Origin: a virus
Lineage: Duplodnaviria > Caudoviricetes
Reading direction: 5' to 3' (one strand)
Length of the DNA stretch: 64,000 nt
IMG/VR virus record: IMGVR_UViG_3300008255_000098
Below the pieces are notes generated by a model that searched no databases, had not been told where the DNA came from, and saw nothing but the letters and a program-made list of their open reading frames with translations. The position numbers were made by a program, and so were the translations under genes. Below are positions 5,769 to 53,640 of this stretch, one piece after another (the stretch's first letter is position 1; each line of letters begins with the position of its first letter).

Positions 5769-5948
5769 GTGAACTGCTCACCTACGACAGCAAAAAAAGC
5801 CGATGGGCTGGGCTTCGGGGATCACAGGCTCATCTAAAATAAATGGTAAAAACGCCTCACCCCGTTTTGCTTTAAAAAAAACATAGGATTCAGTCCCAGA
5901 ATCCGACAATATATCTATACCTTGTTTTAAGAATATTTTTTGTTTCAT
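5769..5948 (-). mobile_element. IS200/IS605-family tnpB 3' remnant with right end / omegaRNA-like sequence
   Basis: Translates to ...LKQGIDILSDSGTES...KRGEAFLP...EPVIPEAQPIG (TnpB C-terminal tail type) and ends GAAGCCCAGCCCATCGGC...GTAGGTGAGCAGTTCAC. It abuts the RBS of the actin-like gene. Confidence 0.7.
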
Positions 5949-6072
5949 TTTACTTTTAGGTAATCTAAACTTTTAATGTTTCCATTCATTTTGAGAAATT
6001 TGCTTCGTTATGTCTAAAAAAATTACACACAAGGTTAGCGTTTGTCGCTTTTTACGCTCCTTTATAAATGTT

Positions 6073-6363
6073 TTATTTTCCTTGCTTTAGTTTCTTAAGT
6101 TTTGACACAGCGTCAGTGATGTCTGTTTCCGAAATAGTCTCTTCGCCAAGGCTGCCAAAATTTTTAGAAAAAGAAGTTGTTTTTATTTCAGTAACAAATT
6201 TACTTTCATCTATTTCAATATTTTTACGTTTATTTAATTTTTTGTATTTTTGTATATTGGTTTTGTCAAAATCTTGAAGAAAACTATTATAAACAAAGTT
6301 AGTTCTACCTAGGGTGTATCCTAATATAAAAAATACAAATCCTATTATTATTTCTATAAGCAT
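6073..6363 (-). CDS. Small N-terminally anchored membrane protein
   Basis: Hydrophobic segment IIIGFVFFILGYTLG followed by a charged soluble region. Confidence 0.65.
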   Translation of the reverse strand: MLIEIIIGFVFFILGYTLGRTNFVYNSFLQDFDKTNIQKYKKLNKRKNIEIDESKFVTEIKTTSFSKNFGSLGEETISETDITDAVSKLKKLKQGK

Positions 6364-6415
6364 ATTTTATTTTAACAAAAAACATAGTCTTTGGACAAAA
6401 GCACTATTTACTATC

Positions 6416-6850
6416 ATGCATCATAGTGATCCAATGAAATATACAATGGAACAACTTGTTAAAGCACTAACAGCTGAAGCTTTAGGGGAAGTTTCAAACA
6501 ACAATCTCATGTTGCAACAAGAATGCGCTTGTGAAGACAATGATGATAACGAAAATTTAGAAAACAATACTAAATGGGACCAAGTTGCACAGGCGTTGGT
6601 AGCAGAAATTAAAAATCAGTTTTCTGGCATAAGTGTTAGAGCAAACGGACCAGAAGCCGAAGAATGTATAGATAGTTTAGCTTCGCTTGTTAGTTTATAC
6701 TCTGAATATCCAATGGCATTTAAATTATTGTCCGCAGTTGAGAAAATAGCTTCCGACGAAACAGACTCACGAGTATTTGCTTCTTTAATAGTTCAGGCAA
6801 TGAATAGCGATGCGGCAGATGAGTGGAAAAGATATAACCAGCATAAGTAG
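6416..6850 (+). CDS. Hypothetical protein with Glu-motif leader
   Basis: Start re-set to ATG 6416 (or 6434), after CTATTTA at 6404-6410; leader MEQLVKALTAEALGEV. Confidence 0.65.
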   Translation: MHHSDPMKYTMEQLVKALTAEALGEVSNNNLMLQQECACEDNDDNENLENNTKWDQVAQALVAEIKNQFSGISVRANGPEAEECIDSLASLVSLYSEYPMAFKLLSAVEKIASDETDSRVFASLIVQAMNSDAADEWKRYNQHK

Positions 6851-6977
6851 AAGTCAGAATATGCAACGCAGGGCCAAGAGCCCACTATAGACGCCACAAT
6901 AAAATTAAGTCGAACTTTGGTACATTTCATTAGTGACAGGTCGCTAAAAATATTCTAAAATAACCACAGAGAAAAAT

Positions 6978-7808
6978 ATGGTCGATAGAGATAAACAACA
7001 AACAGACGAATTTAAAAAAGCAAACTCAAAAATTGTAACAGTTGGTGGAGAAAAAAAACTTCTATTAATGGACGATGATGAACCTAAAAATTCTGATGAG
7101 GAAATTGATTTACAGGAAATAATTGAAACTTTGGTCAGAGAAGCTTTGGAAGAAAACGAATTGTACAAGGATTATAATAAAAAAAAACTTTGTGAAGGAT
7201 ATATTGACGAAGCTGAATTCCCAAATGGTTTCAATATAGAAGAATTCAATAAAATTTCAAGTTTTAAAAATCGTGTCTCATATGCTAAAAAACATCTCCA
7301 GCGAGTTGCTGGTGGTTCTGGCAGAGTAGTCTTTGTAGTAGACCCAGAAACAGTTGTTAAAATTGCATTAAATAAAAAGGGCCAAGCTCAAAATAGTGCA
7401 GAATGGGACATTAGCAATATGGGGTATTCTGCTGTAACAAAGGTAAAAAATGCGGACACAGACAAATATTTGTATCTAGAAGTTGAACGAGCAAAAAAAC
7501 TCAACATGCGTGATTGGAAAAAAGTAACTGGTTGGAATTTTTATGACTGGATGGCTGTATTGAGAAATTACGTTGATGAACGTTTTAATAAAAAACGGGC
7601 TAGGAACATTGTTCCTGAAGACTTTGAAGAAATTGAAGAATCAGAACTTTTTTTAACCATTGTTCAAATGATTACAGATTTTAACATGCCAGCTGGTGAT
7701 ATACAGCGACCTTCCTCTTGGGGTATTGTTGAAAGAGACGGCGCAGAAACTCCTGTTTTAGTTGATTACGGATTGACTGGCGAAGTATATAAAAGCTACT
7801 ACAAATAG
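6978..7808 (+). CDS. Atypical protein-kinase-like fold protein
   Basis: Gly loop AGGSGRVVF, VVKIA Lys, QNSAE alphaC Glu, catalytic-loop variant GDIQRPSSWG, LVDYGL. Acidic leader containing LQEIIETLVREALEEN. Confidence 0.7.
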   Translation: MVDRDKQQTDEFKKANSKIVTVGGEKKLLLMDDDEPKNSDEEIDLQEIIETLVREALEENELYKDYNKKKLCEGYIDEAEFPNGFNIEEFNKISSFKNRVSYAKKHLQRVAGGSGRVVFVVDPETVVKIALNKKGQAQNSAEWDISNMGYSAVTKVKNADTDKYLYLEVERAKKLNMRDWKKVTGWNFYDWMAVLRNYVDERFNKKRARNIVPEDFEEIEESELFLTIVQMITDFNMPAGDIQRPSSWGIVERDGAETPVLVDYGLTGEVYKSYYK

Positions 7809-7809
7809 T

Positions 7810-9834
7810 TTAAGCAACTTCTTTTTTGTATGCGTGCAAAATATTTGGTATAAACTTTTTATATCTAAATTTTTTACTTAGCAACATGGACATAAGTTTT
7901 TCATAAGAGTTGATATCTTCCCAAGTTGTCCCTCTCCCAAAAAATATTTTTGCCATTTCATTTGGGTCTGTTGTAATCGGCTCATCTGATAGTTTTATTT
8001 TCTGCACATTTTTTTGTCGTCCAGTAGGTAGAACGGTTTTAATTTTTTGTTTTCGCATCCCATCTCTAAAATTCAAAACAAAACGAATATATTCATCTTC
8101 GTTTTCTGTTGGCAACTTAATTTCTCTAGCAATGTTACTCAACAACTTGTTTCTGTCCCTTGCTTTATAAGAACTATCTTTAGGAGCCCCTGAGTTAACA
8201 TCCGTCATCCACTGAAGATTTCCTACAAATATATCTACTTGAATAAATCCTGGTTCATCTCCACGAGACCCGTCAGATAAAAAGTTATTTATTTGTTTGT
8301 TTGAACTATCTACCAGCGGCGCTAAAATATGAAATTGACTTAACCCTTTGTTAATTGAATATTTCTCAGCGTCGCTTGTTTGTAACAGCCTATCAAGGCT
8401 ACTCCAAATATTTTTTTTGTCTTTTGAGGAAACTCCTAAAAATTTTGCTAAGTCTTTGCCGTCAATTGCAACGTCTATGTCGTTAAAAAATTCTTTTGTT
8501 TTATTACCAACAACATTGAATGGAATCCCGCCTAATCCACTATTTTTTAGTGCATTTGCTATAGCTGGCTCTAAAAGTGCTTTTGGAACTACAGAATTCA
8601 TTTCATCAAATACATTGCCTCCCTCTGTAAGGAAGTGCAAAGTTTTACTAAGTTTTTGTTCTGGTAGTAGTTCTCTTTTCATAAACATCTCAGCAACTTC
8701 CTTCGGGGGAATGCCTTGGGACAGTTTATTTTTAATTGCTTTTACAAATCCAAGATTTAATTTAATATCATTTTTTGTATCTTCAACCTTACGAGGGATT
8801 GTGATCCACTGTTGGCCTGTTTTTTTGAAATCTTCTTCGGCTCTATGTATTTCTTCTTCCCAAGCAGAAAGATATTTTTCTATATTTTCTGGGTCATTTT
8901 TAATATCTTTTTTGAATGTTCTAATTGCGCTTTCAAGCATTTTTAGAAACCTTCGATTTTCATCACCCTTTTTGAGAAATTTTTCTGTGTCAACAATTTT
9001 TAGCAATTCGCCCTCTGGGTTTTTGACAACTATACCCTCTACCTCATCACCAAATTTACTAGATACGTTTTTCTGTAATATTTGTTGTTTGGCTTCAAGT
9101 CCTAAATCTTGGATTGCTTTAAGAAGTTTTTGTTTCAATTCTTTTTCTGCTGGTTTACGAGCTGGTTTAGATAAGAAATTTCCGTGCTTTTCAATAATAT
9201 CTTCAAGCGAAACTATTATTGAAGAACTAAAATCTAGATCATGTAAATCAACATTTGGGACAGAGAAAAATTTTACTTTACTATATTTGTTAGCTTTGTT
9301 TGCAAAAGATTCCCAAATTTTTGGATTTGATAAAACGCCTGTGTTATCTTTGGAAACAGAAGTTTTCATATTAAATATTACAAGAATTCCGTTTCCAATT
9401 TTAGCCTCATCGTATATCACAATATTGTGATCATACGTTGGAACTGCCTCGCCAGCGACTTCAAGAGTATCAGTAAATTCAAAACCAAATTCTTCAGACA
9501 ACTCCTTACCTATTTCAGCCCACGGAATTTCAGATAATAACTCAAAATATTTCTTAAAACTAGTCATGAAATACAAATCTGGGATTTCCTCAGCTGAGTA
9601 CCAAATTTGTGTCTTTGAACGAAGATAAAATCTTCCGTTATCAATACCAGCCGCTCGATAACTACCGTCGATCTTTTCTGATACATGAAATTTAGCTTTA
9701 TCTAAATTCCATGCTTTTAAAAAGTTCAAAAGTTTCTGTGGAGACAATTTTTCAAGATGGACTACGCCTTCATTTAAATTTTTAAATGCTCGTGCTACTT
9801 CTTCGGTTATTAGCTTTTGTAAAAAAAATTTCAT
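7810..9834 (-). CDS. Fusion of an ATP-dependent ligase (RNA-ligase-like) nucleotidyltransferase domain and a Pol-beta-type nucleotidyltransferase domain
   Basis: Ligase motifs I EKIDGS, III GEAV, IV EGIVVK, V KIV. The second domain after LTEGGNVF has GN...NDIDVAID and QVDIF. Confidence 0.7.
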   Translation of the reverse strand: MKFFLQKLITEEVARAFKNLNEGVVHLEKLSPQKLLNFLKAWNLDKAKFHVSEKIDGSYRAAGIDNGRFYLRSKTQIWYSAEEIPDLYFMTSFKKYFELLSEIPWAEIGKELSEEFGFEFTDTLEVAGEAVPTYDHNIVIYDEAKIGNGILVIFNMKTSVSKDNTGVLSNPKIWESFANKANKYSKVKFFSVPNVDLHDLDFSSSIIVSLEDIIEKHGNFLSKPARKPAEKELKQKLLKAIQDLGLEAKQQILQKNVSSKFGDEVEGIVVKNPEGELLKIVDTEKFLKKGDENRRFLKMLESAIRTFKKDIKNDPENIEKYLSAWEEEIHRAEEDFKKTGQQWITIPRKVEDTKNDIKLNLGFVKAIKNKLSQGIPPKEVAEMFMKRELLPEQKLSKTLHFLTEGGNVFDEMNSVVPKALLEPAIANALKNSGLGGIPFNVVGNKTKEFFNDIDVAIDGKDLAKFLGVSSKDKKNIWSSLDRLLQTSDAEKYSINKGLSQFHILAPLVDSSNKQINNFLSDGSRGDEPGFIQVDIFVGNLQWMTDVNSGAPKDSSYKARDRNKLLSNIAREIKLPTENEDEYIRFVLNFRDGMRKQKIKTVLPTGRQKNVQKIKLSDEPITTDPNEMAKIFFGRGTTWEDINSYEKLMSMLLSKKFRYKKFIPNILHAYKKEVA

Positions 9835-9835
9835 T

Positions 9836-10351
9836 TCACTTTTTCATTTTTTGAATACGGTCATACATATCATCTTCATCTGCAACCCAATCCTCTTCTT
9901 TATCAGCAGCATCGTCTATCATCTCTGCTAACTTTATCAATTGGGCATTTGACTTTTCCATTCTTTCCATGTATTTTGATAGAATGGCACCGTGTATAGC
10001 ATGTTCGTTTGATTTGTTGTGGACATCTTTATATAAATCACCAAATAAGATATATGCATTTTTCCTGTCGCTCACAGCATTTTCATATATCTGCTTCCAC
10101 AATAGTTTTTTCTTATCCTCAAGAGAAGAAATTGTATCTAATAAAGCACTAAAATCTAGAAGTTGTTTTTCGGTATCTTTATCTAATTTTTTAATGTCTG
10201 TTGGAATAAATGTCATTTCTGGACGTTGGGCTGGAAAAGTCTGCGGAATATACTCATATCGTTTTTTATCTTTAGTCTGTTCATCATCATCGGCATCATC
10301 CAAAGCTTCACTTAATTCTTCTTCAAAAGTTTTGTTTAAATTATCTTGCAT
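9836..10351 (-). CDS. Hypothetical helical protein
   Basis: Start re-set to MQDNLNK (ATG 10351), 5 nt after ATAATTA; appears translationally coupled to the ligase gene. Confidence 0.7.
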   Translation of the reverse strand: MQDNLNKTFEEELSEALDDADDDEQTKDKKRYEYIPQTFPAQRPEMTFIPTDIKKLDKDTEKQLLDFSALLDTISSLEDKKKLLWKQIYENAVSDRKNAYILFGDLYKDVHNKSNEHAIHGAILSKYMERMEKSNAQLIKLAEMIDDAADKEEDWVADEDDMYDRIQKMKK

Positions 10352-10452
10352 GATAGTAATTATACTCAAGAACCAGAAAGACAATATTGGTACAAAATAT
10401 TTAAATTCATTTTGTCATTCATATAAAATTCTTCTAAGATATAACTAAAACT

Positions 10453-12201
10453 ATGGCAAGAAGAACCGGCGGATCAGTATCAAGAGAAATCATTGGGGGA
10501 AATACCTCAAATGATGTTGGAAGTAGTTTAGAAAGTATAAGAACATCCGCAAGCAGCCCGACACTACAGCGGGCAGTAGTAATTGATGTTGTTATCAACC
10601 CAAACCTATTAACAGATATACACATTGAGGGAATAGCAAGTACTGTTAACAATCCAAGACTTGCTAGTGTGATGCCTCCAAACTCTATAATAGCACATAT
10701 CATAAGCAATGAGGGTGGACACCTAGCAAGGGGAAACACAATTTTATTTCCATTTTTCTCTTCGCACTTTCAGCTACCAGTTCAAGCAGGAGAAATTGTC
10801 CAAGTAATTTATGATGATTTTAGTCATGGAGGACAAAAAATAGGATATTGGCTTACCAGAACTAGCACACAAAGAACAGTAGAAGATGCGAACTATACTC
10901 ATTTAGATAGGAGATTACAGCCTTTCAATATCCCGTTAGCATTTACAGCTGAGGAGCGGCGGGATAGGTCTACTACGCAGCCAGATTTAGGATTTCCAAA
11001 TGGAGGAAGCTCCCTATCATCTTTTACTCTGCCCCAAAGTAGTTCGACAGATAATATTTTTGATAGCATATTGCGAAATGCAACTTCACACCTAGGGGAA
11101 GGGCAAACTATACCTTTGCAAACATTTGAATCTGTACCACGATGGTCAAAGCGTCCACAAGAGTTTGTATTACAAGGAACTAATAACACATTAATAGTGT
11201 TAGGAGAAGATAGAAAAGGTGGACCACTTGGCGCACGAGCAGAAAATAACCCAGATGCCAAAGGCCAAGCTGGAACAATAGATATTGTTGTCGGAAGAGG
11301 AAGAATAAAACCTGAATTAAGATCTGACCCAAATGGACTTTTTTCTGGGAATACCGCTCCATGGACCACAAGAAATTCCAGAAACAATATTGAGACTGAT
11401 AAAACAAAATTTCTAACTGTTCCTGGAACCACACGCTTAGAAGATAATATAAATGAAGGCGATCCGGATTTTACAAGAGATGCTGCTAGGCTGTATGTTA
11501 CCATGCAGTCTGAGGTTGATGTAAATTTTGGTATTACTGAGATGAACCTCACCCAAAACACTGTTCCTGATGGAGACAACAAAAATAAAATCTTGCAACC
11601 AAATATCGGGGTAAGCGGGACAATAAACAAAAGCTATATTGTTGGAAAATCAGACCACATACGTCTTATTGCTAGAAAGCAAGGGGATACAGAAGTGGAG
11701 GGAACAATATTATTGCTCAGAGAAGGAGTTTCAGAACAAGATTTAAACTATATTTATATTTCTAAGGACGGGACACATGTCGAGGGTCCAAAAATAATTC
11801 TCGGAAGAGGACTTGCAGATTTAGCTGGTAAAGGCCAAGACCCAACCCCAGGAGGTGAACCATATATAAGATGGTCAAAATATCGAGATACTATAGACCA
11901 TCTCCAAAAAGAAATTGTCGATCTTAAAGACGCATTGGCAAAACAAGACCAAGCAACATCAACCCAATTTGCTGCCCTAACAACATTATTGCAGACTGCA
12001 TTTACCGCTGCAATTGCCATTCCATTTAGCCCAATTCCTTCATTGGTAGGCGCTGCGGCAGCGATTGCAAAAACTGGCGTTGATTTGGCAGGAGAACGTA
12101 TCACAAATAAATTAACAGCAGACAACGCAGTCTCTACTGGAAAAACCAATACCGATAAATCTGTGGCAGCCTCTAAAAGTGAGAAAATTTTCGGGGAATA
12201 A
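10453..12201 (+). CDS. Putative baseplate central spike/hub protein (gp5/VgrG-like N-terminal OB fold)
   Basis: N-terminal RAVVIDV...LPVQAGEIVQVIY...YWL pattern, beta-rich middle, C-terminal coiled coil; lies directly upstream of the gp25-like and gp6-like genes. Confidence 0.5.
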   Translation: MARRTGGSVSREIIGGNTSNDVGSSLESIRTSASSPTLQRAVVIDVVINPNLLTDIHIEGIASTVNNPRLASVMPPNSIIAHIISNEGGHLARGNTILFPFFSSHFQLPVQAGEIVQVIYDDFSHGGQKIGYWLTRTSTQRTVEDANYTHLDRRLQPFNIPLAFTAEERRDRSTTQPDLGFPNGGSSLSSFTLPQSSSTDNIFDSILRNATSHLGEGQTIPLQTFESVPRWSKRPQEFVLQGTNNTLIVLGEDRKGGPLGARAENNPDAKGQAGTIDIVVGRGRIKPELRSDPNGLFSGNTAPWTTRNSRNNIETDKTKFLTVPGTTRLEDNINEGDPDFTRDAARLYVTMQSEVDVNFGITEMNLTQNTVPDGDNKNKILQPNIGVSGTINKSYIVGKSDHIRLIARKQGDTEVEGTILLLREGVSEQDLNYIYISKDGTHVEGPKIILGRGLADLAGKGQDPTPGGEPYIRWSKYRDTIDHLQKEIVDLKDALAKQDQATSTQFAALTTLLQTAFTAAIAIPFSPIPSLVGAAAAIAKTGVDLAGERITNKLTADNAVSTGKTNTDKSVAASKSEKIFGE

Positions 12202-12217
12202 CTATAAAAGGGAAGAT

Positions 12218-12538
12218 ATGAGCGAAGATTCAAATAGAAGAAAATTAGTTTTTCAGGAAAAATATAAAAAAGCAATAGATGATATCATCGACGGTGCAAA
12301 ACAATTGTCAAAGGGAAATAAATTATTTTCACGTCACAAAAAAGAACCTTTAACTCCGGATGAAATTCTTGACGCTTCGGCCAAACTAGAGGCAGAAAAA
12401 AAAGCTGAACAAATAAGTGCTTTTTTGGAAGAAGAAGTGTTTGGGACAATCACACGACTTGAGGGCAGAGTTCAAGAGCTTGAAAACAAACTTTCTGCTT
12501 TAAGTGCAGCTAGTACTTCCAGCACACCAGGCGTATAA
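12218..12538 (+). CDS. Small coiled-coil hypothetical protein in the baseplate operon
   Basis: Start re-set to MSEDSN (12218); C-terminal heptads LEGRVQELENKLSAL. Confidence 0.65.
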   Translation: MSEDSNRRKLVFQEKYKKAIDDIIDGAKQLSKGNKLFSRHKKEPLTPDEILDASAKLEAEKKAEQISAFLEEEVFGTITRLEGRVQELENKLSALSAASTSSTPGV

Positions 12539-12564
12539 AATTTAGTTGATAATACTTACTTACA

Positions 12565-13038
12565 ATGGCACAATTAAGTTTTAAAAATGTTGGTGTTAGA
12601 GCGGATTCAATCCGAAACAACCCACTTGTTGTAAACCGTTCCACCCTTCCAATTGGGATTAAAACACCTTTGGAGCTAGTTGGAGGTTCAACTCTTTTTT
12701 TAACGCATACCAATATTGCTAACCAACTAGAAGATAACCTGAGAAACTTACTATTGACAAACTGGGGAGACAGGCTTGCAATTTATGATTTTGGGGCTAA
12801 CTTACAGCCATTAGTTACTGAATACAGCAACAAAGATGATTTTGATACTGAAGCTATGGTTCGAATAAACTCTACTATATCAAAATGGATGCCTTTTGTT
12901 TCTCCAATCGGCTTCGAAAGTTTTCCAGATTTAGAAGACAATCAATTCACAGGGAATATTCGAATTTTTTTGTCTTATGCTATCCCAAGATTAAATGTAA
13001 AAAACAAATTTCTAGAAATCAATTTGTTCATCATATGA
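12565..13038 (+). CDS. Baseplate wedge subunit, GPW/gp25-like
   Basis: NLRNLLLTNWGDRLAIYDFGANLQPLV matches the gp25 signature (LLxTxxGER...xFG). Confidence 0.85.
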   Translation: MAQLSFKNVGVRADSIRNNPLVVNRSTLPIGIKTPLELVGGSTLFLTHTNIANQLEDNLRNLLLTNWGDRLAIYDFGANLQPLVTEYSNKDDFDTEAMVRINSTISKWMPFVSPIGFESFPDLEDNQFTGNIRIFLSYAIPRLNVKNKFLEINLFII

Positions 13039-13045
13039 GTAAAAA

Positions 13046-24788: not shown

Positions 24789-25062
24789 CTTACAGTGGAC
24801 TACGAGACCAAGTTTTTAGTACCGTGTAGCTTATTGTAGAGGCTGTAGTGGATTTCTATTTGTAAAACGTATCAGTGCCCACGGTAAATTACTCATCGAG
24901 TAGGGAATATCCTATAATGGTGTTGCTTGTTTTTCAAAAGTATTTTAAAACTTTTGCCACGGCTGCATCTGTATTCAGTGGTTTGTAAACATAATTGTTA
25001 CCTACATCTGTTGGTTGAATATAATGTAGATAAAAATTCCATAAACCAACTACTTTAATTTT

Positions 25063-25117
25063 ATACAGGAGCGTAAAAAATTCCACCCATCGGTTCTGCC
25101 GTGGGTGGATAGTTCAC
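25063..25117 (+). mobile_element. Miniature IS200/IS605-type right-end element (hairpin + TAGTTCAC)
   Basis: ATACAGGAGCGTAAAAAATTCCACCCATCGGTTCTGCCGTGGGTGGATAGTTCAC; stem TCCACCCA/TGGGTGGA; same terminus as the tnpB remnants. Confidence 0.6.
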
Positions 25118-25179: not shown

Positions 25180-26025
25180 TTAGTATCCAAAACCCTCTAC
25201 TTTACGTAGTTCTTTATAATGTTTCTTTAAATTTGACAAAACTATACTCAATTGTTTTGAGTTAAGTGCCGTAATTTCTCTAATATAAAGAAGTACTGCT
25301 CTTTTTGACAACAAATCAATATCATCAAGATTTTCAATTATAATATTTATAGCTTCTAGAGTACGTTTTTCATTTTCTGTCTTGACACGATTTTCTAGTT
25401 CGGCAACAATGGATTCTAATAACTGTTTCATATCCTGTGTTGACATAATTTCATCATATCCGGGCACAAAATTATTTCGCTCAATTGCTTCTATGTCTAC
25501 CTGTGAAAGATTTTCTTGATAATCTAGACTTACATATTTTTTAATTTTCTTAGAATTCTGTTTTGATTTAATTGTGAGCCAATTTTTAGCAACAACGTTA
25601 AAATACGAGAACGCTTTTGAGCCTTTCGAGACGTCAAATTTATTAACTGCTGAATACAAGAATTCCAAACACTCAATTTTTAAATCTTGTTTTGTTTCAT
25701 GCATTACCTTGAACCCATAAACATTAATAAGATTTTCAATTAACGAATCAAAAGACGGAAGAATTTCTTTGACATAAATTATTTCACGTTCTTCGTCTGT
25801 TTTTGCTTCTTGATATTTTACAATTGCATCTTGTGTATGCATAGTAAAATACTGATTAGATTTTGTGCCAGGCTTTCTTCTGACTATTTTATCTTTTTTT
25901 GATGGCCTTCCAAACCTTTTTTTACTTGGTTTGATAGCGTTTCCGTCTTCATCTAATTTTACTCCGCTAACACCGGATGGTATTCTAGTAATTTTAGTAG
26001 TATTATTTGTTTTGGTGTCTAACAT
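25180..26025 (-). CDS. Phage RNA polymerase sigma factor (gp55/late-sigma-like)
   Basis: YFTMHTQDAIVKYQ...DLKIECLEFLYSAVNKFDVSKGSKAFSYFNVVAKNWL resembles sigma region 2 (KFDxxKG...AFxY). Confidence 0.75.
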   Translation of the reverse strand: MLDTKTNNTTKITRIPSGVSGVKLDEDGNAIKPSKKRFGRPSKKDKIVRRKPGTKSNQYFTMHTQDAIVKYQEAKTDEEREIIYVKEILPSFDSLIENLINVYGFKVMHETKQDLKIECLEFLYSAVNKFDVSKGSKAFSYFNVVAKNWLTIKSKQNSKKIKKYVSLDYQENLSQVDIEAIERNNFVPGYDEIMSTQDMKQLLESIVAELENRVKTENEKRTLEAINIIIENLDDIDLLSKRAVLLYIREITALNSKQLSIVLSNLKKHYKELRKVEGFGY

Positions 26026-33518: not shown

Positions 33519-33780
33519 ATGAACTACCCACCCACGACAGCTTAGCTGTCGTGGGGTAGATTTCGGAGGTCATAGACTTGCCTAATAATGGTAACGCCTT
33601 ATTCTGTTTTTGTTTAACACCCGACTCAGTTCCTGAGTCGGACAGCATTTTTAAATCTTGGTTTTTAATATTTATGTTTGTATCAAAATCTCTGTCATGT
33701 ACAGTATTACAACTTTTCCAGGTCCACGATGCGTTTCGTTTGGTGTAATTTAATAAAATATATTCTTTGAAGTTGCTCAC
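33519..33780 (-). pseudogene. tnpB: Degenerate tnpB 3' fragment with IS200/IS605 right end
   Basis: WTWKSCNTVHDRDFDTNINIKN (zinc finger / RuvC-III HDRD remnant, first Cys lost) + LSDSGTES tail; perfect hairpin CCCACGACAGC-TAA-GCTGTCGTGGG followed by TGGGTAGTTCA. Confidence 0.85.
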
Positions 33781-33786
33781 ACATAA

Positions 33787-45801: not shown

Positions 45802-45962
45802 TGTGTGCTAGAATAATTACTAAGGTGGGAAATTTTCGCCGAATATTTTTATAACTATTAACAAATAGTATATGCGCTAATACGGATTATGTAAATTATT
45901 GTTAAAAATAACTATAACAAATCTATTTAATCCTACAGAAATAATATTAAGGACCTTTTAAA

Positions 45963-46322: not shown

Positions 46323-46943
46323 GCCTAGTTCTTGTAATTCTTTAATTGTGGTAGCCGCATCAACATGTTCAATAGCCATGCCGCCGAAATTTCTCCACGG
46401 AACTATATATTTTGGCATATCGTCTATTAAAAGAGGAATGTTTCCTCTTTTAAGGACATTTCTGATTTCTTCATGTTTTGTGTGGGTGATAATAATCTTA
46501 TTTTTTCCTAGATTCAGTTCACGTTTACACCAGTCTATTTTTCCAAGTTTTGAATTTGGTCCCATCGGTCCAGTACATGCAACTGGATTTTTTGGTTGAA
46601 TATATTCCCACAAATCTTTACCATCTGGTAACCATTCCAATTCGGACCACCAGCGGCGGTTGTTTGACACCAAACTATACATCAAATTACGCACGTGCTT
46701 CTTCTCAGTACCCCAGCAAACGTCCTCAAAAATAAATTTAGAGCCTAGATTGCTGGATAAAAGTTCACCCCCCTGTTGCGTTATAGCTTTTTTGGCGGCA
46801 GCATAAAGTTTTGGATATTTTGTTTTATAAAAATTTTTATTTTTATCAACTTTTTCGACGAATTCATTCATGGTCTGCAATGCGCCACCCATGTAGTCGC
46901 AAAGTGTTCCATCAAGATCACAAAATATTTCGTATTTTTCCAT
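46317..46943 (-). CDS. HAD-superfamily 5'(3')-nucleotidase-like phosphatase
   Basis: IFCDLDGTLCDY (DxDG) and LLIDD. Confidence 0.8.
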   Translation of the reverse strand: MEKYEIFCDLDGTLCDYMGGALQTMNEFVEKVDKNKNFYKTKYPKLYAAAKKAITQQGGELLSSNLGSKFIFEDVCWGTEKKHVRNLMYSLVSNNRRWWSELEWLPDGKDLWEYIQPKNPVACTGPMGPNSKLGKIDWCKRELNLGKNKIIITHTKHEEIRNVLKRGNIPLLIDDMPKYIVPWRNFGGMAIEHVDAATTIKELQELGL

Positions 46944-46982
46944 GTGTATAACATAACACAGATTTTTGGAAAATGAACTTGT

Positions 46983-47654
46983 TTATTTTGTGAGAGTTTG
47001 TACCAACTCGGTCCACTTTACTGTTGCTTCGCCCTCGATGGAAGTTTTCCCGCCAGGTCCGAGCCATAAATTTGGGTCTGTATGATCGCTGCTATAATCT
47101 CCAGTGGCAGCTTTATTTAGTACGTGTATGAGTTCGTGTACTGCTGGTTGCCCTTTTTCCGCAATAGTTGATAAATAATCTGTGCGGATGACTACCATAT
47201 CTACTCTTTTAGTTCCAAAAATACCAGAAAGCTCAACAGAATATGCGGCGACATGTTTTAGATTGTCATCCGACCACATCCCGACATCACCGCCAGCCTC
47301 GAAATTTTTGTTTGTTTTAAACAAAAAAATAACATGGGGTCTGCTCGCTTTTGTAATTTTTCTATTATGGAAAATTGTTTCAGTTGCTATCATCGCAACA
47401 GCACATTTTTCAGCCACGTCTTTTGCTTGCATTATTTTTCCGTCAACGATCCAAGCTTCTGTTTCGTTGGAAATTTTATTTTTGATTGAAGGTAAATCTT
47501 TATCGACTATTATGGTTGCAGTTTTTCCCCCAACAACCGCACTAAATTTATAGCCTTTTGGGAAATCAGGTCCACGCAAAATCTTAACTAAGGCCCATGC
47601 GCCAATTCCTAAGAATGTTACTACAGTTACTATTAAAATTATAATTCCAATCAT
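46983..47654 (-). CDS. Membrane-anchored protein with HExxH zinc-peptidase motif
   Basis: N-terminal TM IIILIVTVVTFLGIGAWALV; VHELIHVL followed by a further His. Confidence 0.6.
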   Translation of the reverse strand: MIGIIILIVTVVTFLGIGAWALVKILRGPDFPKGYKFSAVVGGKTATIIVDKDLPSIKNKISNETEAWIVDGKIMQAKDVAEKCAVAMIATETIFHNRKITKASRPHVIFLFKTNKNFEAGGDVGMWSDDNLKHVAAYSVELSGIFGTKRVDMVVIRTDYLSTIAEKGQPAVHELIHVLNKAATGDYSSDHTDPNLWLGPGGKTSIEGEATVKWTELVQTLTK

Positions 47655-47697
47655 TTCTTACCTCATGCGTGTTTGAAGTAAGTATTATTTCAGAATA

Positions 47698-48009
47698 TTA
47701 CTCGTCTAGTTTTTTATTTGGATTGTTTTTAATATCCATTTCAAGACCTAAAAGTCCATACCCAGCAATATCTGCAAAAGGACTTTCTCCTAAAGCATCT
47801 TTGTCAGTTGCAATCCGTTTAAGTTTATCAAAAATTCTTATTACACAAAGCATATCTTGATATTTCTCAGGAGGTATTCCGTCTGGATATAGCATCTTAA
47901 GAAACTCTCCTGCATCATTAAATGAGTTTCCGTAAGCCTTGTTTTTAATATCCACTATTTTTCCGATTTGCGTACCAAGTTTTTCGTATTTTGAATTTTC
48001 GTCTTGCAT
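47698..48009 (-). CDS. Nucleotide-modification-associated domain 1 (DUF1599-like) protein
   Basis: KNKAYGNSF...RIFDKLKRI...ESPFADIAGYGLLG. Confidence 0.75.
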   Translation of the reverse strand: MQDENSKYEKLGTQIGKIVDIKNKAYGNSFNDAGEFLKMLYPDGIPPEKYQDMLCVIRIFDKLKRIATDKDALGESPFADIAGYGLLGLEMDIKNNPNKKLDE

Positions 48010-48031
48010 GTTTTCTTTCGGGTGTTAAATC

Positions 48032-48061
48032 AGTATAGCAAGCTAACAAAAAGATTTGAAA
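48032..48061 (-). promoter_or_regulatory. Sigma70-type promoter with extended -10
   Basis: TTTCAA-N18-TATACT with TGn immediately before the -10, upstream of ATG 48009. Confidence 0.5.
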
Positions 48062-48092
48062 TACTTTTTTAAACTTCTATTTACCAAGATAC

Positions 48093-48635
48093 ATGGTAAA
48101 ACAATACGAAAAGCTTGGGGAGAAAAAAATTATTCTAAAAGATAAAATGTCGGGGTACGATAAAAAACTTCTTTTAAAGACTTATAGATTACCAAATGGC
48201 GTAATAGAAAATTTTTTCATTGACGACGATAAAGATAGTGTCCAAATATTTCCGGTTACAACTGACAACATGGTGCTAACAGTTAGTCAATTCCGCCCTG
48301 GTATAGAAAAAACTATTATTGAGCTTCCAGGCGGCGGCCTAGAGAAGGGCGAAGACCCAAAAGAAGCCGCAAGCCGAGAGCTAAAAGAAGAGACAGGTTA
48401 TACTGGAACCTTGGTGTTTTTAGGAAAATTAAATTACAGCCCATATTCTTCTGGTTGTAAATACCTTTTTGCTGCTAAAGATTGTAAAAAAATTAGCGGA
48501 CTAGAACTAGACGAAAATGAATTTCTATCTGTTGTGAAATGGCCAATGAGTAAATTTAGAAAAACAATTTCCGGCGGAAAAATTAGAGGAACTGATTGCA
48601 TTTATATGGGATTAGATGCTTTGGACCTTTTATAA
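48093..48635 (+). CDS. NUDIX hydrolase (ADP-ribose pyrophosphatase-like)
   Basis: Nudix box PGGGLEKGEDPKEAASRELKEETGY; upstream QFRPG...IELP typical of the NudF type. Confidence 0.9.
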   Translation: MVKQYEKLGEKKIILKDKMSGYDKKLLLKTYRLPNGVIENFFIDDDKDSVQIFPVTTDNMVLTVSQFRPGIEKTIIELPGGGLEKGEDPKEAASRELKEETGYTGTLVFLGKLNYSPYSSGCKYLFAAKDCKKISGLELDENEFLSVVKWPMSKFRKTISGGKIRGTDCIYMGLDALDLL

Positions 48636-48636
48636 A

Positions 48637-48846
48637 CTATTCTTTTTCTTTCTTATTTTTATCTGTTCCATACGTGTAATCCAAATAAAATAATAAACCA
48701 GCAGGTTTTGACATAGGTTGCACGACAATTAGGTCCCTCACTAATTGCGAAGGGAAAATTCGTCTTTTCCGACCTGAACACATATAAAATATTGTTTTCC
48801 TTCGGCGATATATTTGAATTGAATCTCTAATGTTTTTAATATTCAT
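48637..48846 (-). CDS. 69-aa protein resembling an isolated segment of a T4 gp23-type major capsid protein
   Basis: RRIFPSQLVRDLIVVQPMSKPAGLLFYLDYTYG; strong SD AAGGAG 6 nt before the ATG. Confidence 0.6.
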   Translation of the reverse strand: MNIKNIRDSIQIYRRRKTIFYMCSGRKRRIFPSQLVRDLIVVQPMSKPAGLLFYLDYTYGTDKNKKEKE

Positions 48847-49033
48847 ATTTCTCCTTTATTTATCCTTTTTGGTTAGTTTTAACAAATATTTGTGTCGTTG
48901 GTAACAAAACTAAACTCAAAAAAAATTGGATATGCAGTAGTGTTTAACAAAGTTTTTTGACCCTAGAAAGAAACAACATAACTCTTCTAGATTTTTGTAT
49001 CTATCAGACCGTTTATATTTTTAATTGATATTA

Positions 49034-50080
49034 CTAAAACCTTCTTAATTTCGAGGGCACATGTGCTCTTGCCTTGCCAGCGATAGCCCTAGCTTCTGGT
49101 AAATTATGGTGGGCTCCTTTACTTGGAATATTTGATGCTCCTTCAGCATTTGCCTCTGATGCTTTTTTGATTTCTTTACCAACTCTTTCAATTAACCATT
49201 TTCTGTAACTCAATGGCATATTGTAATATGTTTTATAATCCATTCCAAAATAATATCCAAGTAAAAAAAATGGCTCTAAAAAAACCATTTCTCTATAATC
49301 AGAACTCAAAGAGAAAAATGAATGGTTTGTTGGAATGCTAACTGTCTCTGTGTGAGGACAACCTGCACAAGAAAAATCAGTTTTCATATCTAGTCCCGGT
49401 TTGTGTGTTTCAATGTATTTACGTAAAACATTACTATCTGTTGCTCTCATATTTAAAACAAATTTTCTAATTTGTTCTCTATCAGTAACGCCGTTTATTT
49501 TAACAATAGAGTTAAGCAAAACTGATGTAACAACTGTATATTCACCCTCATCAGAATTTTCTAATAATTGATTTATTATCTTTTCTTCTTTCACAGATAA
49601 GAATTTAAATAAGATTTCATGTCCAGACTTTGGCAAAACAAACTTAAATAAATTTTCTCCTGGTATCTCTGGAGTTAAATCAAGAAATTTAATTGGAACA
49701 CTTGCTAAATCAAAATGTAATGTATTTTGTGTCTCGCACTCTGGACATGTTAAAATCGGCTCAAATAGCCTTCCATACCCAGAGATACGAATAGCAACCA
49801 TTAAAGCATCTTTGTCCCCGATCAGCATATCAGATATATCAATTTCTGGCGCTAACAAACAAGAAGAAATCATTTTCTCAACGGAAATATTTTTCTTCTT
49901 GTAGGCAGAATTTAAAAGTATATCTTCCTGTCGTGGTGTCATTGCTTTATATTCAACAGTTTTTTTATTGAAAAAGAAACTATCTTTATTGTAAATTTTT
50001 CCACGAGAGGGCAATGGAACATAATCTACTGGTAAATCATTTCCAGTACTACTTGAGGTATGTTTCTTACCTTTCCTCAT
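49034..50080 (-). CDS. gp26-like baseplate-hub/tail assembly chaperone with fused C-terminal extension
   Basis: VPLPSRGKIY, MTPRQEDIL, GDKDALMVAIRISGYG, two CxxC pairs, then FF...YNMPLSYRKWLI extension. Confidence 0.7.
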   Translation of the reverse strand: MRKGKKHTSSSTGNDLPVDYVPLPSRGKIYNKDSFFFNKKTVEYKAMTPRQEDILLNSAYKKKNISVEKMISSCLLAPEIDISDMLIGDKDALMVAIRISGYGRLFEPILTCPECETQNTLHFDLASVPIKFLDLTPEIPGENLFKFVLPKSGHEILFKFLSVKEEKIINQLLENSDEGEYTVVTSVLLNSIVKINGVTDREQIRKFVLNMRATDSNVLRKYIETHKPGLDMKTDFSCAGCPHTETVSIPTNHSFFSLSSDYREMVFLEPFFLLGYYFGMDYKTYYNMPLSYRKWLIERVGKEIKKASEANAEGASNIPSKGAHHNLPEARAIAGKARAHVPSKLRRF

Positions 50081-50088
50081 ATTAAATA

Positions 50089-50982
50089 TTATTTAAGAGT
50101 GTCTGGCCAGAAAAACTCAGGTCCCATTGGTAATGATATTTCTGCAACGTGGTCACAGCTGTAACACGAAAAATCCACCATCATATCCACACCGGGCTCA
50201 TGTTTATCTATGTAAGATCTGAGCGACAGACTATCTCTTGCTGGCATAAATTGCACAAATCTATTAATTTGTGAACGATCTTTTACTCCGTCTATTTCTA
50301 CAATAGAAGATAATAATCTAGTCGTAACAATGTTGTTGTTTTGAATACCCTTTTTGTTTTTAACTTCTAAAGTTTTGAGAATTTTTTCTTCCTCTTCACC
50401 AGTCAAAAATCTAAATCCGATATTTCTTTTAGAAACTGGAAGAGAGAAATAAAACAAATTTTCATAAGGGTTTGCAGGTTCTATATTTAAGGTTTTAATA
50501 CCTAAAGAACGTAAATCAATTTCGAGCTTACTTTGTACGCCGCAAGCTGGACATGTAAAACTTGGAAGATATTCACTTCCATATCCGGAGTCTCGGATTG
50601 CAATCATTAGTGCATTTCTGTCTCCGGAAATCATTTGGTTAACATCAACGCTTTTATCAGTCAGGCAGGACTTGATCAACTCTGTGATGACAGTTCCTTT
50701 TTTGATATATGCCTTGCTCATCAAAATATCTTCTTCACGTGCGGTCATTGACCTGAACTCAACCCTGTCTTTATTGTGCAAAGCGTGACCAGATGGGTAA
50801 ATTTTTCCAGCAGATGGCAAAGGAACAGCCTGAATAGGAATATCAAGCCCAAGTTCCTGTTTAGCATATTCTTGAGTGCTAATGGGCATTACTTCGCCAT
50901 TTTCAGCTGCTTGTTTTGCTGCAAATACAGAATTTCTATATTCTCTTTGCTCTTCTTCAGTCATTTGATTTTGTTCACTCAT
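50089..50982 (-). CDS. gp26-like baseplate-hub/tail assembly chaperone
   Basis: VPLPSAGKIY, MTAREEDIL, GDRNALMIAIRDSGYG, CPAC/CYSC, ends FFWPDTLK. Confidence 0.8.
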   Translation of the reverse strand: MSEQNQMTEEEQREYRNSVFAAKQAAENGEVMPISTQEYAKQELGLDIPIQAVPLPSAGKIYPSGHALHNKDRVEFRSMTAREEDILMSKAYIKKGTVITELIKSCLTDKSVDVNQMISGDRNALMIAIRDSGYGSEYLPSFTCPACGVQSKLEIDLRSLGIKTLNIEPANPYENLFYFSLPVSKRNIGFRFLTGEEEEKILKTLEVKNKKGIQNNNIVTTRLLSSIVEIDGVKDRSQINRFVQFMPARDSLSLRSYIDKHEPGVDMMVDFSCYSCDHVAEISLPMGPEFFWPDTLK

Positions 50983-51047
50983 ATTTTACCTTTGCTGTAT
51001 CTTGTATGTAAAAAATATATATGTCTTACTAAAAATTTTAAACCACT

Positions 51048-51581
51048 TTATTTGCGCACATACAGAGATTCACCTTCAGGTCCTCCGTTGTCTATGGTAA
51101 GTTTTCTTTCGAATCCAACACTTGACAAAAAATTATCTAGGTCTTCAAGAGTATTGGGATGTTGTTGTGTCTTAAATCTGACATTTGTATAAATTGCTTT
51201 AAAAGGAAATCTTCCAAGTAGCGGCCCAAATCCTTCTAATACAGATTTTTCTTCGCCATGTAAATCTAAAACGATTAAATCATAAAAATCTAAATTAATA
51301 TCAACAATATTCTCACGAACGAGTTGATCAAAAGTTATATTATTTTGGGTAGTAACATTTGATAAATTTGCACAAAAATATTTTGAAAATACTGTTGTTT
51401 CTCTTGTATTTTTGTATAAATTAGCAATATTTTCTTGCTTTTGTTCTATCCACAAAGCGTGTGAAAAATTGTTTTTTTCATAAGCTTTGGCATATTTTTC
51501 TCCGTTGGTACCAATGTGAATTACTCCAACAAAATTTTCTGTCGAACAAGTCTCAGCGCAATCTTTAAATGGTATAAACAT
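51048..51581 (-). CDS. Divergent FkbM-like methyltransferase paralogue
   Basis: GVIHIGTN, LWIE, LIVLDLHGEEKSVLEGFG, AIYTNV align by eye with the 32870-33490 protein. Confidence 0.65.
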   Translation of the reverse strand: MFIPFKDCAETCSTENFVGVIHIGTNGEKYAKAYEKNNFSHALWIEQKQENIANLYKNTRETTVFSKYFCANLSNVTTQNNITFDQLVRENIVDINLDFYDLIVLDLHGEEKSVLEGFGPLLGRFPFKAIYTNVRFKTQQHPNTLEDLDNFLSSVGFERKLTIDNGGPEGESLYVRK

Positions 51582-52423
51582 TACTTTTCCTCAATAAATT
51601 TAAGTTCCACTGGAACATGAACGGAGGTTGCTTGTATTCCAGAATAGCTTTTATAATCTATTGTTTGTCCAGAAAGATATTTTGTATTTATTTGTTCTGT
51701 TGAAAGTTCCCCCGTAAATCTATTATTGTATTGTGTTTGAACAATATTAACAGGAATATTAATTAATCTTGGACCTTCGGTATAACAACACAAATATTGA
51801 GGAAAACCATTTTGCTTACTTACAGCGTCTAACATGGATTCAAAAGTATTTGGATTTTTATATCTAATCACAGAAGCAATATTTTTCATAATGTCTGTTT
51901 TATATACGTTCCCGTCAACTGACATTGGGTATCCCCAATCACCTTCTTTTCCCGCCCATGCCCAAACTATATTTTTAACAAAATTTGGTACGGAGCTATT
52001 TTTGTTGGTGGCATAACAATGTGTTACCCCCTTGTGTAGTCGAAGACTTACAGCAATCATTGACTGATTTTTGTCAAGGAATTCAAATTGTTTATCATCT
52101 ATGGAAACAGTATTAACGAAAATATCGTCATCAACTAAAAACATAATAAAATTTGCTGTGCTATTTTGTATCGTGTTTGTTAGTTGAGAATAAAAATCTT
52201 CTTCTTCCTGCCAAATAAGATTCTTTTTTCCTAAAAAGATTTTTTGTGTTTTTAGGTATCCCTTTTTAAATTCATCGGTAGTTGCCTTCCATAATACTGT
52301 TACTTTTGGATCAAGACAAATAAATTTATCATAAAACGAGGCAAGGCACGTATGTGCTTGTGAGGCTCTATTGCAAGAAAACAATATTACTTCTATTTGT
52401 TTTTCATTGGTAATAATATCCAT
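51581..52423 (-). CDS. GT-A (GT2-like) glycosyltransferase
   Basis: ILFSCNRASQ..., FLVDDDIF (DxD-type), YPMSVDGNVY. Confidence 0.7.
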   Translation of the reverse strand: MDIITNEKQIEVILFSCNRASQAHTCLASFYDKFICLDPKVTVLWKATTDEFKKGYLKTQKIFLGKKNLIWQEEEDFYSQLTNTIQNSTANFIMFLVDDDIFVNTVSIDDKQFEFLDKNQSMIAVSLRLHKGVTHCYATNKNSSVPNFVKNIVWAWAGKEGDWGYPMSVDGNVYKTDIMKNIASVIRYKNPNTFESMLDAVSKQNGFPQYLCCYTEGPRLINIPVNIVQTQYNNRFTGELSTEQINTKYLSGQTIDYKSYSGIQATSVHVPVELKFIEEK

Positions 52424-52671
52424 ATATTTTCCTGTAAGAATTTCAACAACTTGATTTGTTTTTTATTTATTAATATTTTTTTTTCTAAAGTAGTTATAAT
52501 TCTTTTTTCTAAAACTGATTTTGTTGCTAACTTATACTTTTGTATGGCAGCTATGTAATATTCTGTGTCTTTTATAAGAAGTCTGCATTCTGCTTCTAAT
52601 AACGCCGCTATTGTTTTGGTTTTTCCAGTACGTATTATATTCAAGTAGATGGTTTTCTTAAAAGAGTTCAC
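52393..52671 (-). CDS. Hypothetical protein
   Basis: 92-aa Lys/Ile-rich ORF co-oriented in the operon. Confidence 0.5.
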   Translation of the reverse strand: MNSFKKTIYLNIIRTGKTKTIAALLEAECRLLIKDTEYYIAAIQKYKLATKSVLEKRIITTLEKKILINKKQIKLLKFLQENIWILLPMKNK

Positions 52672-52704
52672 GAAGATAACTATCTCAAGATTGTTTTATA
52701 TGAC

Positions 52705-52750
52705 AAGGCGTAAAACCCATCCATCGTTTTTACGTGGGCGGCCAGCTCAC
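52705..52750 (+). mobile_element. Miniature IS200/IS605-type right-end element, degenerate
   Basis: AAGGCGTAAAACCCATCCATCGTTTTTACGTGGGCGGCCAGCTCAC; similar to the 25063-25117 copy; ends 3 nt from the thyX stop. Confidence 0.5.
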
Positions 52751-52753
52751 CTC

Positions 52754-53470
52754 TTAAACAAATGGTTCAATCAAGCTCCCGTTGTCACCCACAAATCCAA
52801 ATGCACGTAACGTTAAATCAAATTCTTTAGTATTTTGTACTGCTTTTAGCATTAATTTAGCAAGCTCACAAACTTCTCGCTGTGCGTGTGTGCTATACCG
52901 CAGGCCAATAAAGTGTGAAAAACTTCTAAAATTAAACTGCATGTCACATAAAATTTGATTGCCATATGGCAAATAAAATCTTGAACTTTCTTTAGCCCTC
53001 TTTCGAGCTTCAGACTTTTTCATACCTTTTACTCTAATATAATGTTCGGTAAGCCTTATAAGTGAATTATGATATTTTTCATATGTTTTTTCCATATGTT
53101 CTAAATAAATCTGTATTTCATCATCTGGCCAATCATCTGGGATGAATAGCTTATCTTCTTTTAGTTCTTTGTATCTAGCTGATTCAGCATTAATTGAAAC
53201 GCCAATTCTGTGTTTTAGAAGATGTATATGTGTTGCTATATCGCTCTTAACTAAGAAATGTAATGCGCTCTTTTCGAATGGAGTGTGATGATTATTTTCA
53301 GCCAACATTTTTAAAAGAGCAGGAATTCGTGCTTCCTTCTCTGGTGTTAGCTCTCGTGAGGTACTGGTCCAAGCAGAACAAGCGTGCTCTCTATCTCCAC
53401 CATAAAAACCAATAAGTTCAACTGTATTTTGATGTTCTGATTCATCGTTAAATATTCTTTGAGTGTCCAT
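52754..53470 (-). CDS. thyX: Flavin-dependent thymidylate synthase
   Basis: HHTPFE, KHRIGVSINAESARY (RHRxxSxxxxSxR variant), NFRSF, HAQRE. Confidence 0.9.
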   Translation of the reverse strand: MDTQRIFNDESEHQNTVELIGFYGGDREHACSAWTSTSRELTPEKEARIPALLKMLAENNHHTPFEKSALHFLVKSDIATHIHLLKHRIGVSINAESARYKELKEDKLFIPDDWPDDEIQIYLEHMEKTYEKYHNSLIRLTEHYIRVKGMKKSEARKRAKESSRFYLPYGNQILCDMQFNFRSFSHFIGLRYSTHAQREVCELAKLMLKAVQNTKEFDLTLRAFGFVGDNGSLIEPFV

Positions 53471-53600
53471 GTGAACTATGGTAGCACTACAAAAATAAAA
53501 TGTGTATCAGTATTATTCGTCAAAATGTGGGCCTTTTCATAAGTTTCTAGGTCGCATACACCTAGGCTTTTCGAAAAAAGTTTATCTTTAGTGTTATCAG

Positions 53601-53640
53601 TGACGCCCCAACAGGTTTGTTCTGTGGGTGAGCAGTTCAC
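53601..53640 (+). mobile_element. Miniature IS200/IS605-type right-end element
   Basis: TGACGCCCCAACAGGTTTGTTCTGTGGGTGAGCAGTTCAC; the last 14 nt (GGTGAGCAGTTCAC) are identical to the 5769 copy; contains the TGA stop of the convergent gene. Confidence 0.6.

Follow-up and report, generated by a model that had tools for sequence, protein, structure and literature searches.

What are five short, hairpin-bearing repeats doing at gene boundaries in the genome of a tailed phage? The question is raised by a 64,000-nucleotide (nt) stretch of IMG/VR virus record IMGVR_UViG_3300008255_000098, which we call the window, in which such repeats, numbered here E1 to E5 in order of position, all finish in a common motif. 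An initial annotation, made by reading the sequence, took them for right-end fragments of IS200/IS605 insertion sequences that carry the gene tnpB, and proposed that they were either miniature elements mobilized in trans, or pieces of DNA domesticated as terminators and leaders, or a dispersed set of guides for a TnpB protein encoded elsewhere. The answer that we consider likely is a plainer one: the five copies are decayed relics of five separate IS605-group insertions, most likely neutral and no longer mobile. What had been supposed to be a dispersed guide-RNA set becomes, in the clarified annotation, a group of transposon scars with exact boundaries.

The common end, GTRGGYGRNYAGYTCAY, occurs exactly at 5769-5785 and 33519-33535 on the minus strand and at 25101-25117, 52734-52750 and 53624-53640 on the plus strand, and at zero mismatches the window has no sixth site. 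The five hairpin-plus-motif ends of the initial annotation are thus where it placed them. This pattern was drawn from the window copies themselves, and the independent test is a covariance model, R2, built from IMG/VR homologues only, with the window sequences left out. R2 gives independent support to E3 (33519-33651, minus strand; 95.5 bits, E 2e-20), E1 (5769-5915, minus strand; 68.5 bits, E 3e-14) and E2 (25018-25117, plus strand; 32.5 bits, E 9e-6), and marginal support to E4 (ending at 52750; 13.7 bits, E 0.21). It does not recover E5 (ending at 53640) at E<=1, for which an earlier model, R1, gave 11.2 bits and E 1.2, and it reports no additional copy in the window. E5 is included for its 17-mer, which equals that of E1 at 16 of 17 positions, for its hairpin, and for a TTTAT at the expected distance. 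In E4 and E5, right-end homology is confined to the tail motif and the hairpin.

To place the copies in a family, homologues were retrieved from IMG/VR viral contigs with a conserved block that the long copies share: AAACAAAAAC and TAAGGCGTT, separated by four free bases. About 30 were obtained, and in eight of them an open frame of 400-458 codons extends into the repeat. Two of the eight, L093 and L100, are complete elements of 1.79-1.80 kb. Each consists of TTTAT, a left end (LE), a divergent gene for 136 amino acids (aa), a 117-nt spacer, a gene for 400 aa, and a right end (RE) that finishes in GTGGGTGGGTAGTTCAC; the LE is made up of a few variable bases, then GGAGCGTAAAA, then a hairpin. 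Their small protein matches the Pfam family Y1_Tnp (E 7e-35 in L093), and the large one is TnpB, with HTH_OrfB_IS605, OrfB_IS605 and Cas12f1-like TNB domains (E 9e-31, 4e-21 and 7e-17 in L093). These elements belong to the IS605 group of the IS200/IS605 family. As in insertion sequences of the IS605, IS608, ISDra2 and ISGst2 type, the full-length relatives have a TnpA of the Y1 HUH kind, a 400-aa TnpB and subterminal hairpins at both ends; their insertion, 3' of a constant AT-rich pentamer, does not duplicate the target; and their structured RNA overlaps the 3' end of tnpB and stops at the element boundary. They differ in the pentamer, TTTAT, which serves as target and target-adjacent motif (TAM), in the end motif, TTCAC, and in their carriers, which are large, AT-rich environmental phages. 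The window differs further in having gutted copies only. What is defined, then, is a phage-borne IS605-group family with its own TAM, end motif and covariance model.

Both the LEs and the REs of L093 and L100 align with the window copies. This homology, together with R2, bears out the derivation from IS200/IS605 TnpB elements, RE and omegaRNA scaffold included, that the initial annotation had put forward. Its description of the copies as right ends has to be given up. A second motif that it had noticed, ATAMAGGAGCGTAAAAA, does have exactly two exact matches, at 6049-6065 (minus strand) and 25063-25079 (plus strand), and alignment with the true LEs identifies this motif as the 5' tip of the LE. 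The tip is found in E1, E2 and E4; LE similarity is weak in E3 and E5. TTTAT lies directly 5' of all five copies—as it does of L093, L100 and every solo scored in IMG/VR, a solo being a unit of about 50 nt in which LE and RE are fused around one hairpin—and the flanks show no target-site duplication. With TTTAT and the left junction kept in all five, the copies are whole insertions minus their interiors rather than bare right ends. The 3' ends first assigned to them stand; the 5' boundaries do not, the true ones lying further out. As first noted, the window has no intact tnpA or tnpB: by tblastn, just 40-70 C-terminal aa of TnpB and at most four codons of TnpA are present. As revised, the five copies and their parts are these:

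5769..6063, minus strand: E1, an internally deleted IS605-group insertion of 295 nt (blastn against L093, block alignment, tblastn, R2).
6064..6068, minus strand: the TTTAT target and TAM of E1, abutting its left end, 4 nt past the stop (6075-6073) of the open reading frame (ORF) 6073-6363.
6063-6049, minus strand: LE tip of E1, the LE hairpin being precisely missing (alignment with true LEs).
About 6048-6030, minus strand: LE interior of E1, about 20 nt.
6010-6021, plus strand: first four codons of tnpA in E1 (block alignment).
5998-5977, minus strand: part of the tnpA-tnpB intergenic region in E1 (22 of 22 positions match L093 by blastn).
5948-5946, minus strand: tnpB ATG of E1, fused in frame to the last 54 or so codons.
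5915-5769, minus strand: full omegaRNA scaffold of E1, then the RE ending in TTCAC.
5874..5904, minus strand: a terminator-like feature in E1, the 6-pair stem 1 of the omegaRNA followed by TATGTTTTTT.
25065..25117, plus strand: E2, a 53-nt solo LE/RE fusion (LE tip, hairpin with RE-type loop, RE tail); TTTAT at 25060-25064.
33519..33782, minus strand: E3, a 264-nt relic with an RE ending in TTCAT, the LE hairpin missing; TTTAT at 33787-33783.
52700..52750, plus strand: E4, a 51-nt solo LE/RE fusion with LE-type loop and an RE tail ending in CTCAC; TTTAT at 52695-52699.
53586..53640, plus strand: E5, a 55-nt solo whose LE side (20 nt) has diverged and whose hairpin is bulged, followed by an RE tail; TTTAT at 53581-53585.

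E1 and E3 are the long copies, and both hold the C-terminal tnpB remnants that the initial annotation had reported. With an intact relative as query, tblastn places these at 5927-5799 in E1 (TnpB aa 358-395, E 2.5e-4) and at 33762-33553 in E3 (aa 325-393, 60% identity, E 2e-20). By blastn, E1 is 68% identical to L093 over 5928-5769 (E 6e-11), and E3 79% over 207 nt (E 4e-45). E3 begins, after its TTTAT, with about 8 nt that fit an LE tip, and continues with the 3' portion of tnpB, beginning near codon 318 and complete from there on; it overlaps a full omegaRNA scaffold at 33651-33519 on the minus strand. Among the short copies, E2 matches L093 best in the RE (positions 1765-1796, 94%, E 1e-7) and E4 in the LE (positions 4-50, 85%, E 8e-9), both by blastn; the length of E5 agrees with that of solos in other phages. 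None of the five has both the LE and the RE hairpin; each has one at most.

That E1 is an insertion can be seen from phages that lack it. About 75 inspected IMG/VR relatives of the neighbouring actin-like gene (71-88% aa identity) have an empty site, where 0-75 nt separate the upstream gene from a ribosome-binding site. Removal of 6063-5769 in silico leaves a stop codon, 10 nt, TAGGAGG and ATG, the same type of junction as in those relatives, and the polymorphism among related phages that a mobile origin would imply, according to the initial annotation, is in this case present. Three related contigs of 187-211 kb contain no model match and no TnpB domain. A metagenome scan for the predicted empty-site allele of E1 gave 0 matches, and one for long copies with the E1/E5 tail gave chance matches only. 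Contigs of the metagenome runs break at E1 and E2, their loose ends deriving from other copies; none joins a TTTAT to the 3' flank, and such contigs drop rare variants and are silent on excision. In one contig of a groundwater run 75 nt of E1 (5929-6003) are skipped, and single-nucleotide variants of E1 occur in two runs, which points to strain variants with a further-deleted E1 or to assembly paths that lead through other copies.

How might five insertions have come to look like this? Elements of the IS605 group circulate in large, AT-rich phages, inserting just 3' of TTTAT, and each window copy has since lost its interior while retaining both junctions. For the 51-55-nt copies, E2, E4 and E5, the loss could have come about by recombination or replication slippage between two blocks of some 10-13 nt, one to either side of the loop, that the LE and RE hairpins have in common. 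A crossover in the left block would leave an RE-type loop, and one in the right block an LE-type loop; in either case a single hybrid hairpin would remain. An RE-type loop in E2, an LE-type loop in E4, and both of these plus hybrids in other phages are what crossovers at different points of the hairpin should produce. E1 and E3 would have lost the LE hairpin, tnpA and the greater part of tnpB to other internal deletions, while their scaffold stayed nearly complete. The insertions were presumably tolerated because TTTAT lay in short intergenic spacers and the neighbouring genes stayed intact. Solo long terminal repeats (LTRs) offer an analogy, although no more than that: there too, the interior is lost between direct terminal repeats and one hybrid terminal unit stays at the site. 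LTRs are hundreds of bases long, however, while the repeats of the solos are short blocks in two hairpins, and for the solos the mechanism is our inference. Since no copy has two hairpins, the known mechanism of TnpA leads us to expect neither excision nor transposition from the window. The copies share 55-71% identity with one another (68-71% among E2, E4 and E5) and have at least two tail types, so each goes back to an old insertion of its own rather than to a burst of copying in this genome.

Several points weigh against this reading. An empty site is demonstrated for E1 only: relatives of the genes around E2-E5 are not syntenic (thyX, at 64% aa identity or less, and proteins of 1066 and 317 aa), and for a 558-aa neighbour no relative was found. 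The proposed 5' limits of E3 and E5 are weak, depending as they do on TTTAT and a slight resemblance to an LE tip. A TnpB or TnpA might be encoded elsewhere in the phage, in its host or in a co-infecting phage, the search having covered 64 kb. E1 keeps the start region of tnpB, and omegaRNA could still be made from E1 and E3. Finally, near-identical solos occur at different sites in other phages, so solos could perhaps move.

This last point deserves a closer look. The 21 IMG/VR loci that fit a strict solo pattern represent about 14 sites, and all have TTTAT and TTCAC at their ends. Their loops are LE-type, RE-type or hybrid, and some short loops are unlike those of the sampled full-length ends. 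The same solo core recurs at no fewer than four sites, and one contig (L298) has two identical 51-nt copies 1.8 kb apart. One could imagine from this that E2, E4 and E5 are ultra-small mobile elements, with a TnpA acting in trans that cuts after TTTAT and after TTCAC around one hairpin; solos are common, their termini are uniform, their core is found in several places, and some of their short loops are absent from the full-length ends sampled. The variety of loops nevertheless fits independent collapses better than the spread of one lineage, the window solos are just 68-71% alike, and the run contigs, which drop rare variants, show no excision joint. The established mechanism of IS608, moreover, uses two hairpins, each having a separate DNA guide that directs cleavage at a separate site (PMC10055086). 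Mobility of the window solos seems to us a distinctly long shot.

The spacing of the two identical solos in L298 was considered and set aside as coincidence, because ordinary small phage genes lie between them. In another contig (L384) a solo and a longer relic stand head to tail, their RE tails 116 nt apart, a stacking to be expected if the TTTAT before a relic is hit again. We found no description of the roughly 50-nt solo form in the literature searched. Repetitive extragenic palindromes (REPs), their paired form (REPINs) and their REP-associated tyrosine transposases (RAYTs) come nearest in appearance, in that they too have one short hairpin with conserved flanking bases, a tie to IS200/IS605 ends and an intergenic dispersal. 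The solos differ in their low copy number, in having the termini of an ordinary insertion sequence and in standing each at a TTTAT; no RAYT is known here.

The long copies pose a different problem, because they retain the scaffold of a guide RNA. An alignment of the last 125 nt of 22 copies from outside the window has a consensus fold of five helices, and both partners vary in 15 of its 37 pairs. Paired cells amount to 97.4%, against 31-43% with slid partners, and none of 500 shuffles reaches the observed values. The two 5' helices and a long-range helix covary as would be expected of an RNA, the omegaRNA scaffold; its last hairpin doubles as the DNA hairpin that TnpA recognizes. E1 and E3 have all 125 model positions and form 31 of 35 pairs each, with four broken, where copies beside an intact tnpB form 34-35 of 35 (none or one broken). 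Of this scaffold, E2, E4 and E5 have only the last hairpin left and so are unable to carry a guide. The dispersed guide set first proposed shrinks accordingly to E1 and E3, the only two that could.

E1 and E3 might then be working omegaRNA genes, loaded by a TnpB from elsewhere with their flanks as guides, and might home without transposing: genomes with an uninterrupted TTTAT and flank would be cut, and the relic copied in by recombination, or rival phages damaged. Whole scaffolds are what this calls for, and E1 additionally has the start codon of tnpB and some of the sequence upstream of it; gene-less relatives with promoter-like sites, at five or more places, show that omegaRNA-only modules persist and spread, and gene-less elements that need TnpB in trans have been described (PMC10055086). 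Against it, the window has no tnpB; four broken pairs per scaffold suggest relaxed constraint; a terminator-like hairpin and T-run has been inserted within the scaffold of E1, the run being a 6-nt T insertion absent from every other family member in the alignment; and the empty sites of the sampled relatives differ from the E1 guide. The TAM-flanked matches to the 3' flanks that the initial annotation had in mind are also wanting, no TTTAT-flanked match to the guides existing elsewhere in the window. TldR and its guide RNA would be the precedent for a TnpB-type guide RNA reused outside transposition, as the first reading proposed; here there is no TldR or TnpB gene beside the copies or in the window, and no TAM-flanked guide match. 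On balance we regard trans-acting guides in E1 and E3 as improbable, and residual omegaRNA activity is a modest question. The window relics belong to a kind of element that is already known.

Gene-less derivatives that do move are found in other phages. One form of about 205 nt, with both hairpins, is present at two sites (L090 and L099), and at one of these a second contig (L108) has different internal deletions, a case of decay in situ. Another, of about 215 nt, is composed of the LE hairpin, a promoter-like TTGACT-17-TATATT, the omegaRNA and the RE, and occupies five or more different TTTAT sites (L356, L372, L375, L389, L395). Palindrome-associated transposable elements (PATEs) are gene-less derivatives of IS200/IS605 elements, often with omegaRNA (PMC10055086; PMC3119063), and some need TnpB in trans (PMC10055086). 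The two-hairpin, gene-less derivatives of about 205-218 nt are PATEs, mobilized in trans. The window copies resemble PATEs in having no protein genes and in keeping their termini, and E1 and E3 in having an omegaRNA. They differ in that a PATE has LE and RE hairpins and can be moved in trans, and the window copies have one hairpin at most; near-identical copies at many sites, too, are seen among the relatives in other phages and not in the window, with its 55-71% identities. The suggestion of miniature elements mobilized in trans was therefore sound for the two-hairpin relatives in other phages, though not for the copies that inspired it. Phage genomes thus present a decay series that leads from the autonomous element to a gene-less PATE with its own promoter-like site and on to a 50-nt solo.

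How common are the stages of this series? Phage contigs with an intact copy mostly have one copy each, and one additionally has a solo. Three scans pooled gave 136 distinct ends in viral contigs, a biased sample, as two of the scans were aimed at certain forms. An intact ORF accompanies 40 of these ends, 42 are without an ORF, 20 belong to solos, and 34 are undecidable. Within this biased pool, ends without tnpB (62) exceed those with an intact ORF (40), an excess that bears on the length of time for which TnpB elements persist in viruses and on the interpretation of 'orphan omegaRNAs' in metagenomes. It is conceivable, if rather doubtful, that in phage populations with full-length copies and TnpB in circulation the relics are alleles resistant to cleavage by a homing TnpB, TTTAT being parted from the flank that matches the guide, with E1 and E3 homing by means of a TnpB in trans; a bolder version would have the 50-nt units mobile as well. 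If true, cleavage resistance would explain the excess of TnpB-less over intact ends in phage contigs, and, in the bolder version, single-hairpin units of about 50 nt would be the smallest mobile DNA elements known. In one further contig (L104, 5018-5793, plus strand) a homing endonuclease has taken the place of tnpB: an ORF with GIY-YIG and NUMOD3 domains (Pfam E 3e-10 and 2e-8) continues in frame into an omegaRNA/RE remnant.

There remains the positioning of the copies, which had led the initial annotation to think of terminators and leaders. The geometry was described correctly. The RE of E1 stops 11 nt ahead of the ATG of the actin-like gene, that of E3 28 nt ahead of the ATG of the FkbM gene, and E4 ends 3 nt from the stop of thyX. 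The stop of ORF 53637-53981 (minus strand) is a TGA formed by the TTCAC of E5 (window 53637-53642). Before the insertion, this stop would have been a TAA from the TTTAT target, one codon position later, with the length of the protein unchanged; at E5, element end and target mimic one another on the opposite strand.

Co-option would make E2, E4 and E5 terminators or stabilizers of the genes convergent with them, and E1 and E3 the leaders or promoters of the actin-like and FkbM genes. Every copy does lie where one gene gives way to another, and E1 and E3 immediately precede genes on their own strand; the end of the remnant ORF in E3 overlaps the FkbM start as TAATG; and E5 supplies a stop. Placement at boundaries is expected from an AT-rich TTTAT target and selection against insertion within genes, and ORF 53637, which would have ended in a TTTAT-derived TAA before E5 arrived, gained nothing. 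A terminator role finds no support at E2, E4 and E5, where no hairpin with a T-run occurs on the strand of the neighbouring genes (minus). As to promoters, promoter-like sites are no commoner than in shuffles, and a short, element-less spacer serves for expression of the actin-like gene in about 75 relatives. We would be very surprised if the relics had been co-opted in this way.

E4 and E5 lie in the same orientation on either side of thyX (52695-53640). Composite-element cargo was considered for thyX and rejected, since both copies are complete solos, and a TTTAT and a TTCAC-type end belong to each; nor is their closeness a sign of a composite, the rough chance that two of five relics fall within 900 nt being about 0.3. 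Relatives of thyX, at 64% aa identity or less, occur in unrelated phage neighbourhoods, which suggests that the gene lies in a variable region.

The window, with a G+C content of 35.5%, is part of a large tailed phage, the full genome of which is probably above 200 kb. Its genes include those for a baseplate wedge, a tape-measure protein, ribonucleotide reductase, ThyX, an FkbM methyltransferase and a Volactin-like actin. The last of these (4753-5757, minus strand; Pfam Volactin, E 8e-63) has 149 IMG/VR relatives, in contigs of up to 460 kb, the best 80 at 71-88% aa identity, and is therefore conserved in a group of large phages with a wide distribution. Neither Pfam nor PHROGs confirms the 'sigma' label first given to ORF 25180-26025. 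Among GenBank phages, neither the window nor the element is matched by megablast or blastn, and at gathering thresholds Rfam has no family in the window. DNA of the window is found in contigs of aquifer and groundwater metagenome runs, and the runs listed for it include none of RNA.

Outside viruses, the nearest cousins were found in two of about 300 Bacteroidota genomes, both Chitinophagaceae, which have the same 5' scaffold and other terminal hairpins. One of the two (G197; L321-L330) has ten cousin-omegaRNA copies, five with TnpB frames of 386-403 aa; the ends of these copies read GCTGAGCAGTAC in place of the phage tail. A scan of genome contigs with a gap of 55-85, wider than the 48 of the main family, gave chance matches only and is silent on bacterial hosts. 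In viruses, the 98.6-kb phage contig of L002 in IMG/VR encodes TnpBs of 420 and 416 aa (L006 and L007) in addition to a gene-less long relic of the window family; both TnpBs are intact, and were rejected as parents because they are of another subfamily with different 3' ends. The exact RE 17-mer is present in more than 120 IMG/VR stretches, on several different scaffolds and TnpB lineages, and in one set (L353-L451) the same RE hairpin and tail recur with no fewer than four omegaRNA scaffolds that differ clearly and accompany ORFs of 390-430 aa. One type of transposase would seem to act for many of the TnpB lineages found in phages, and the sharing of a single end type by several TnpB/omegaRNA lineages resembles the service of one TnpA to several ISGst families.

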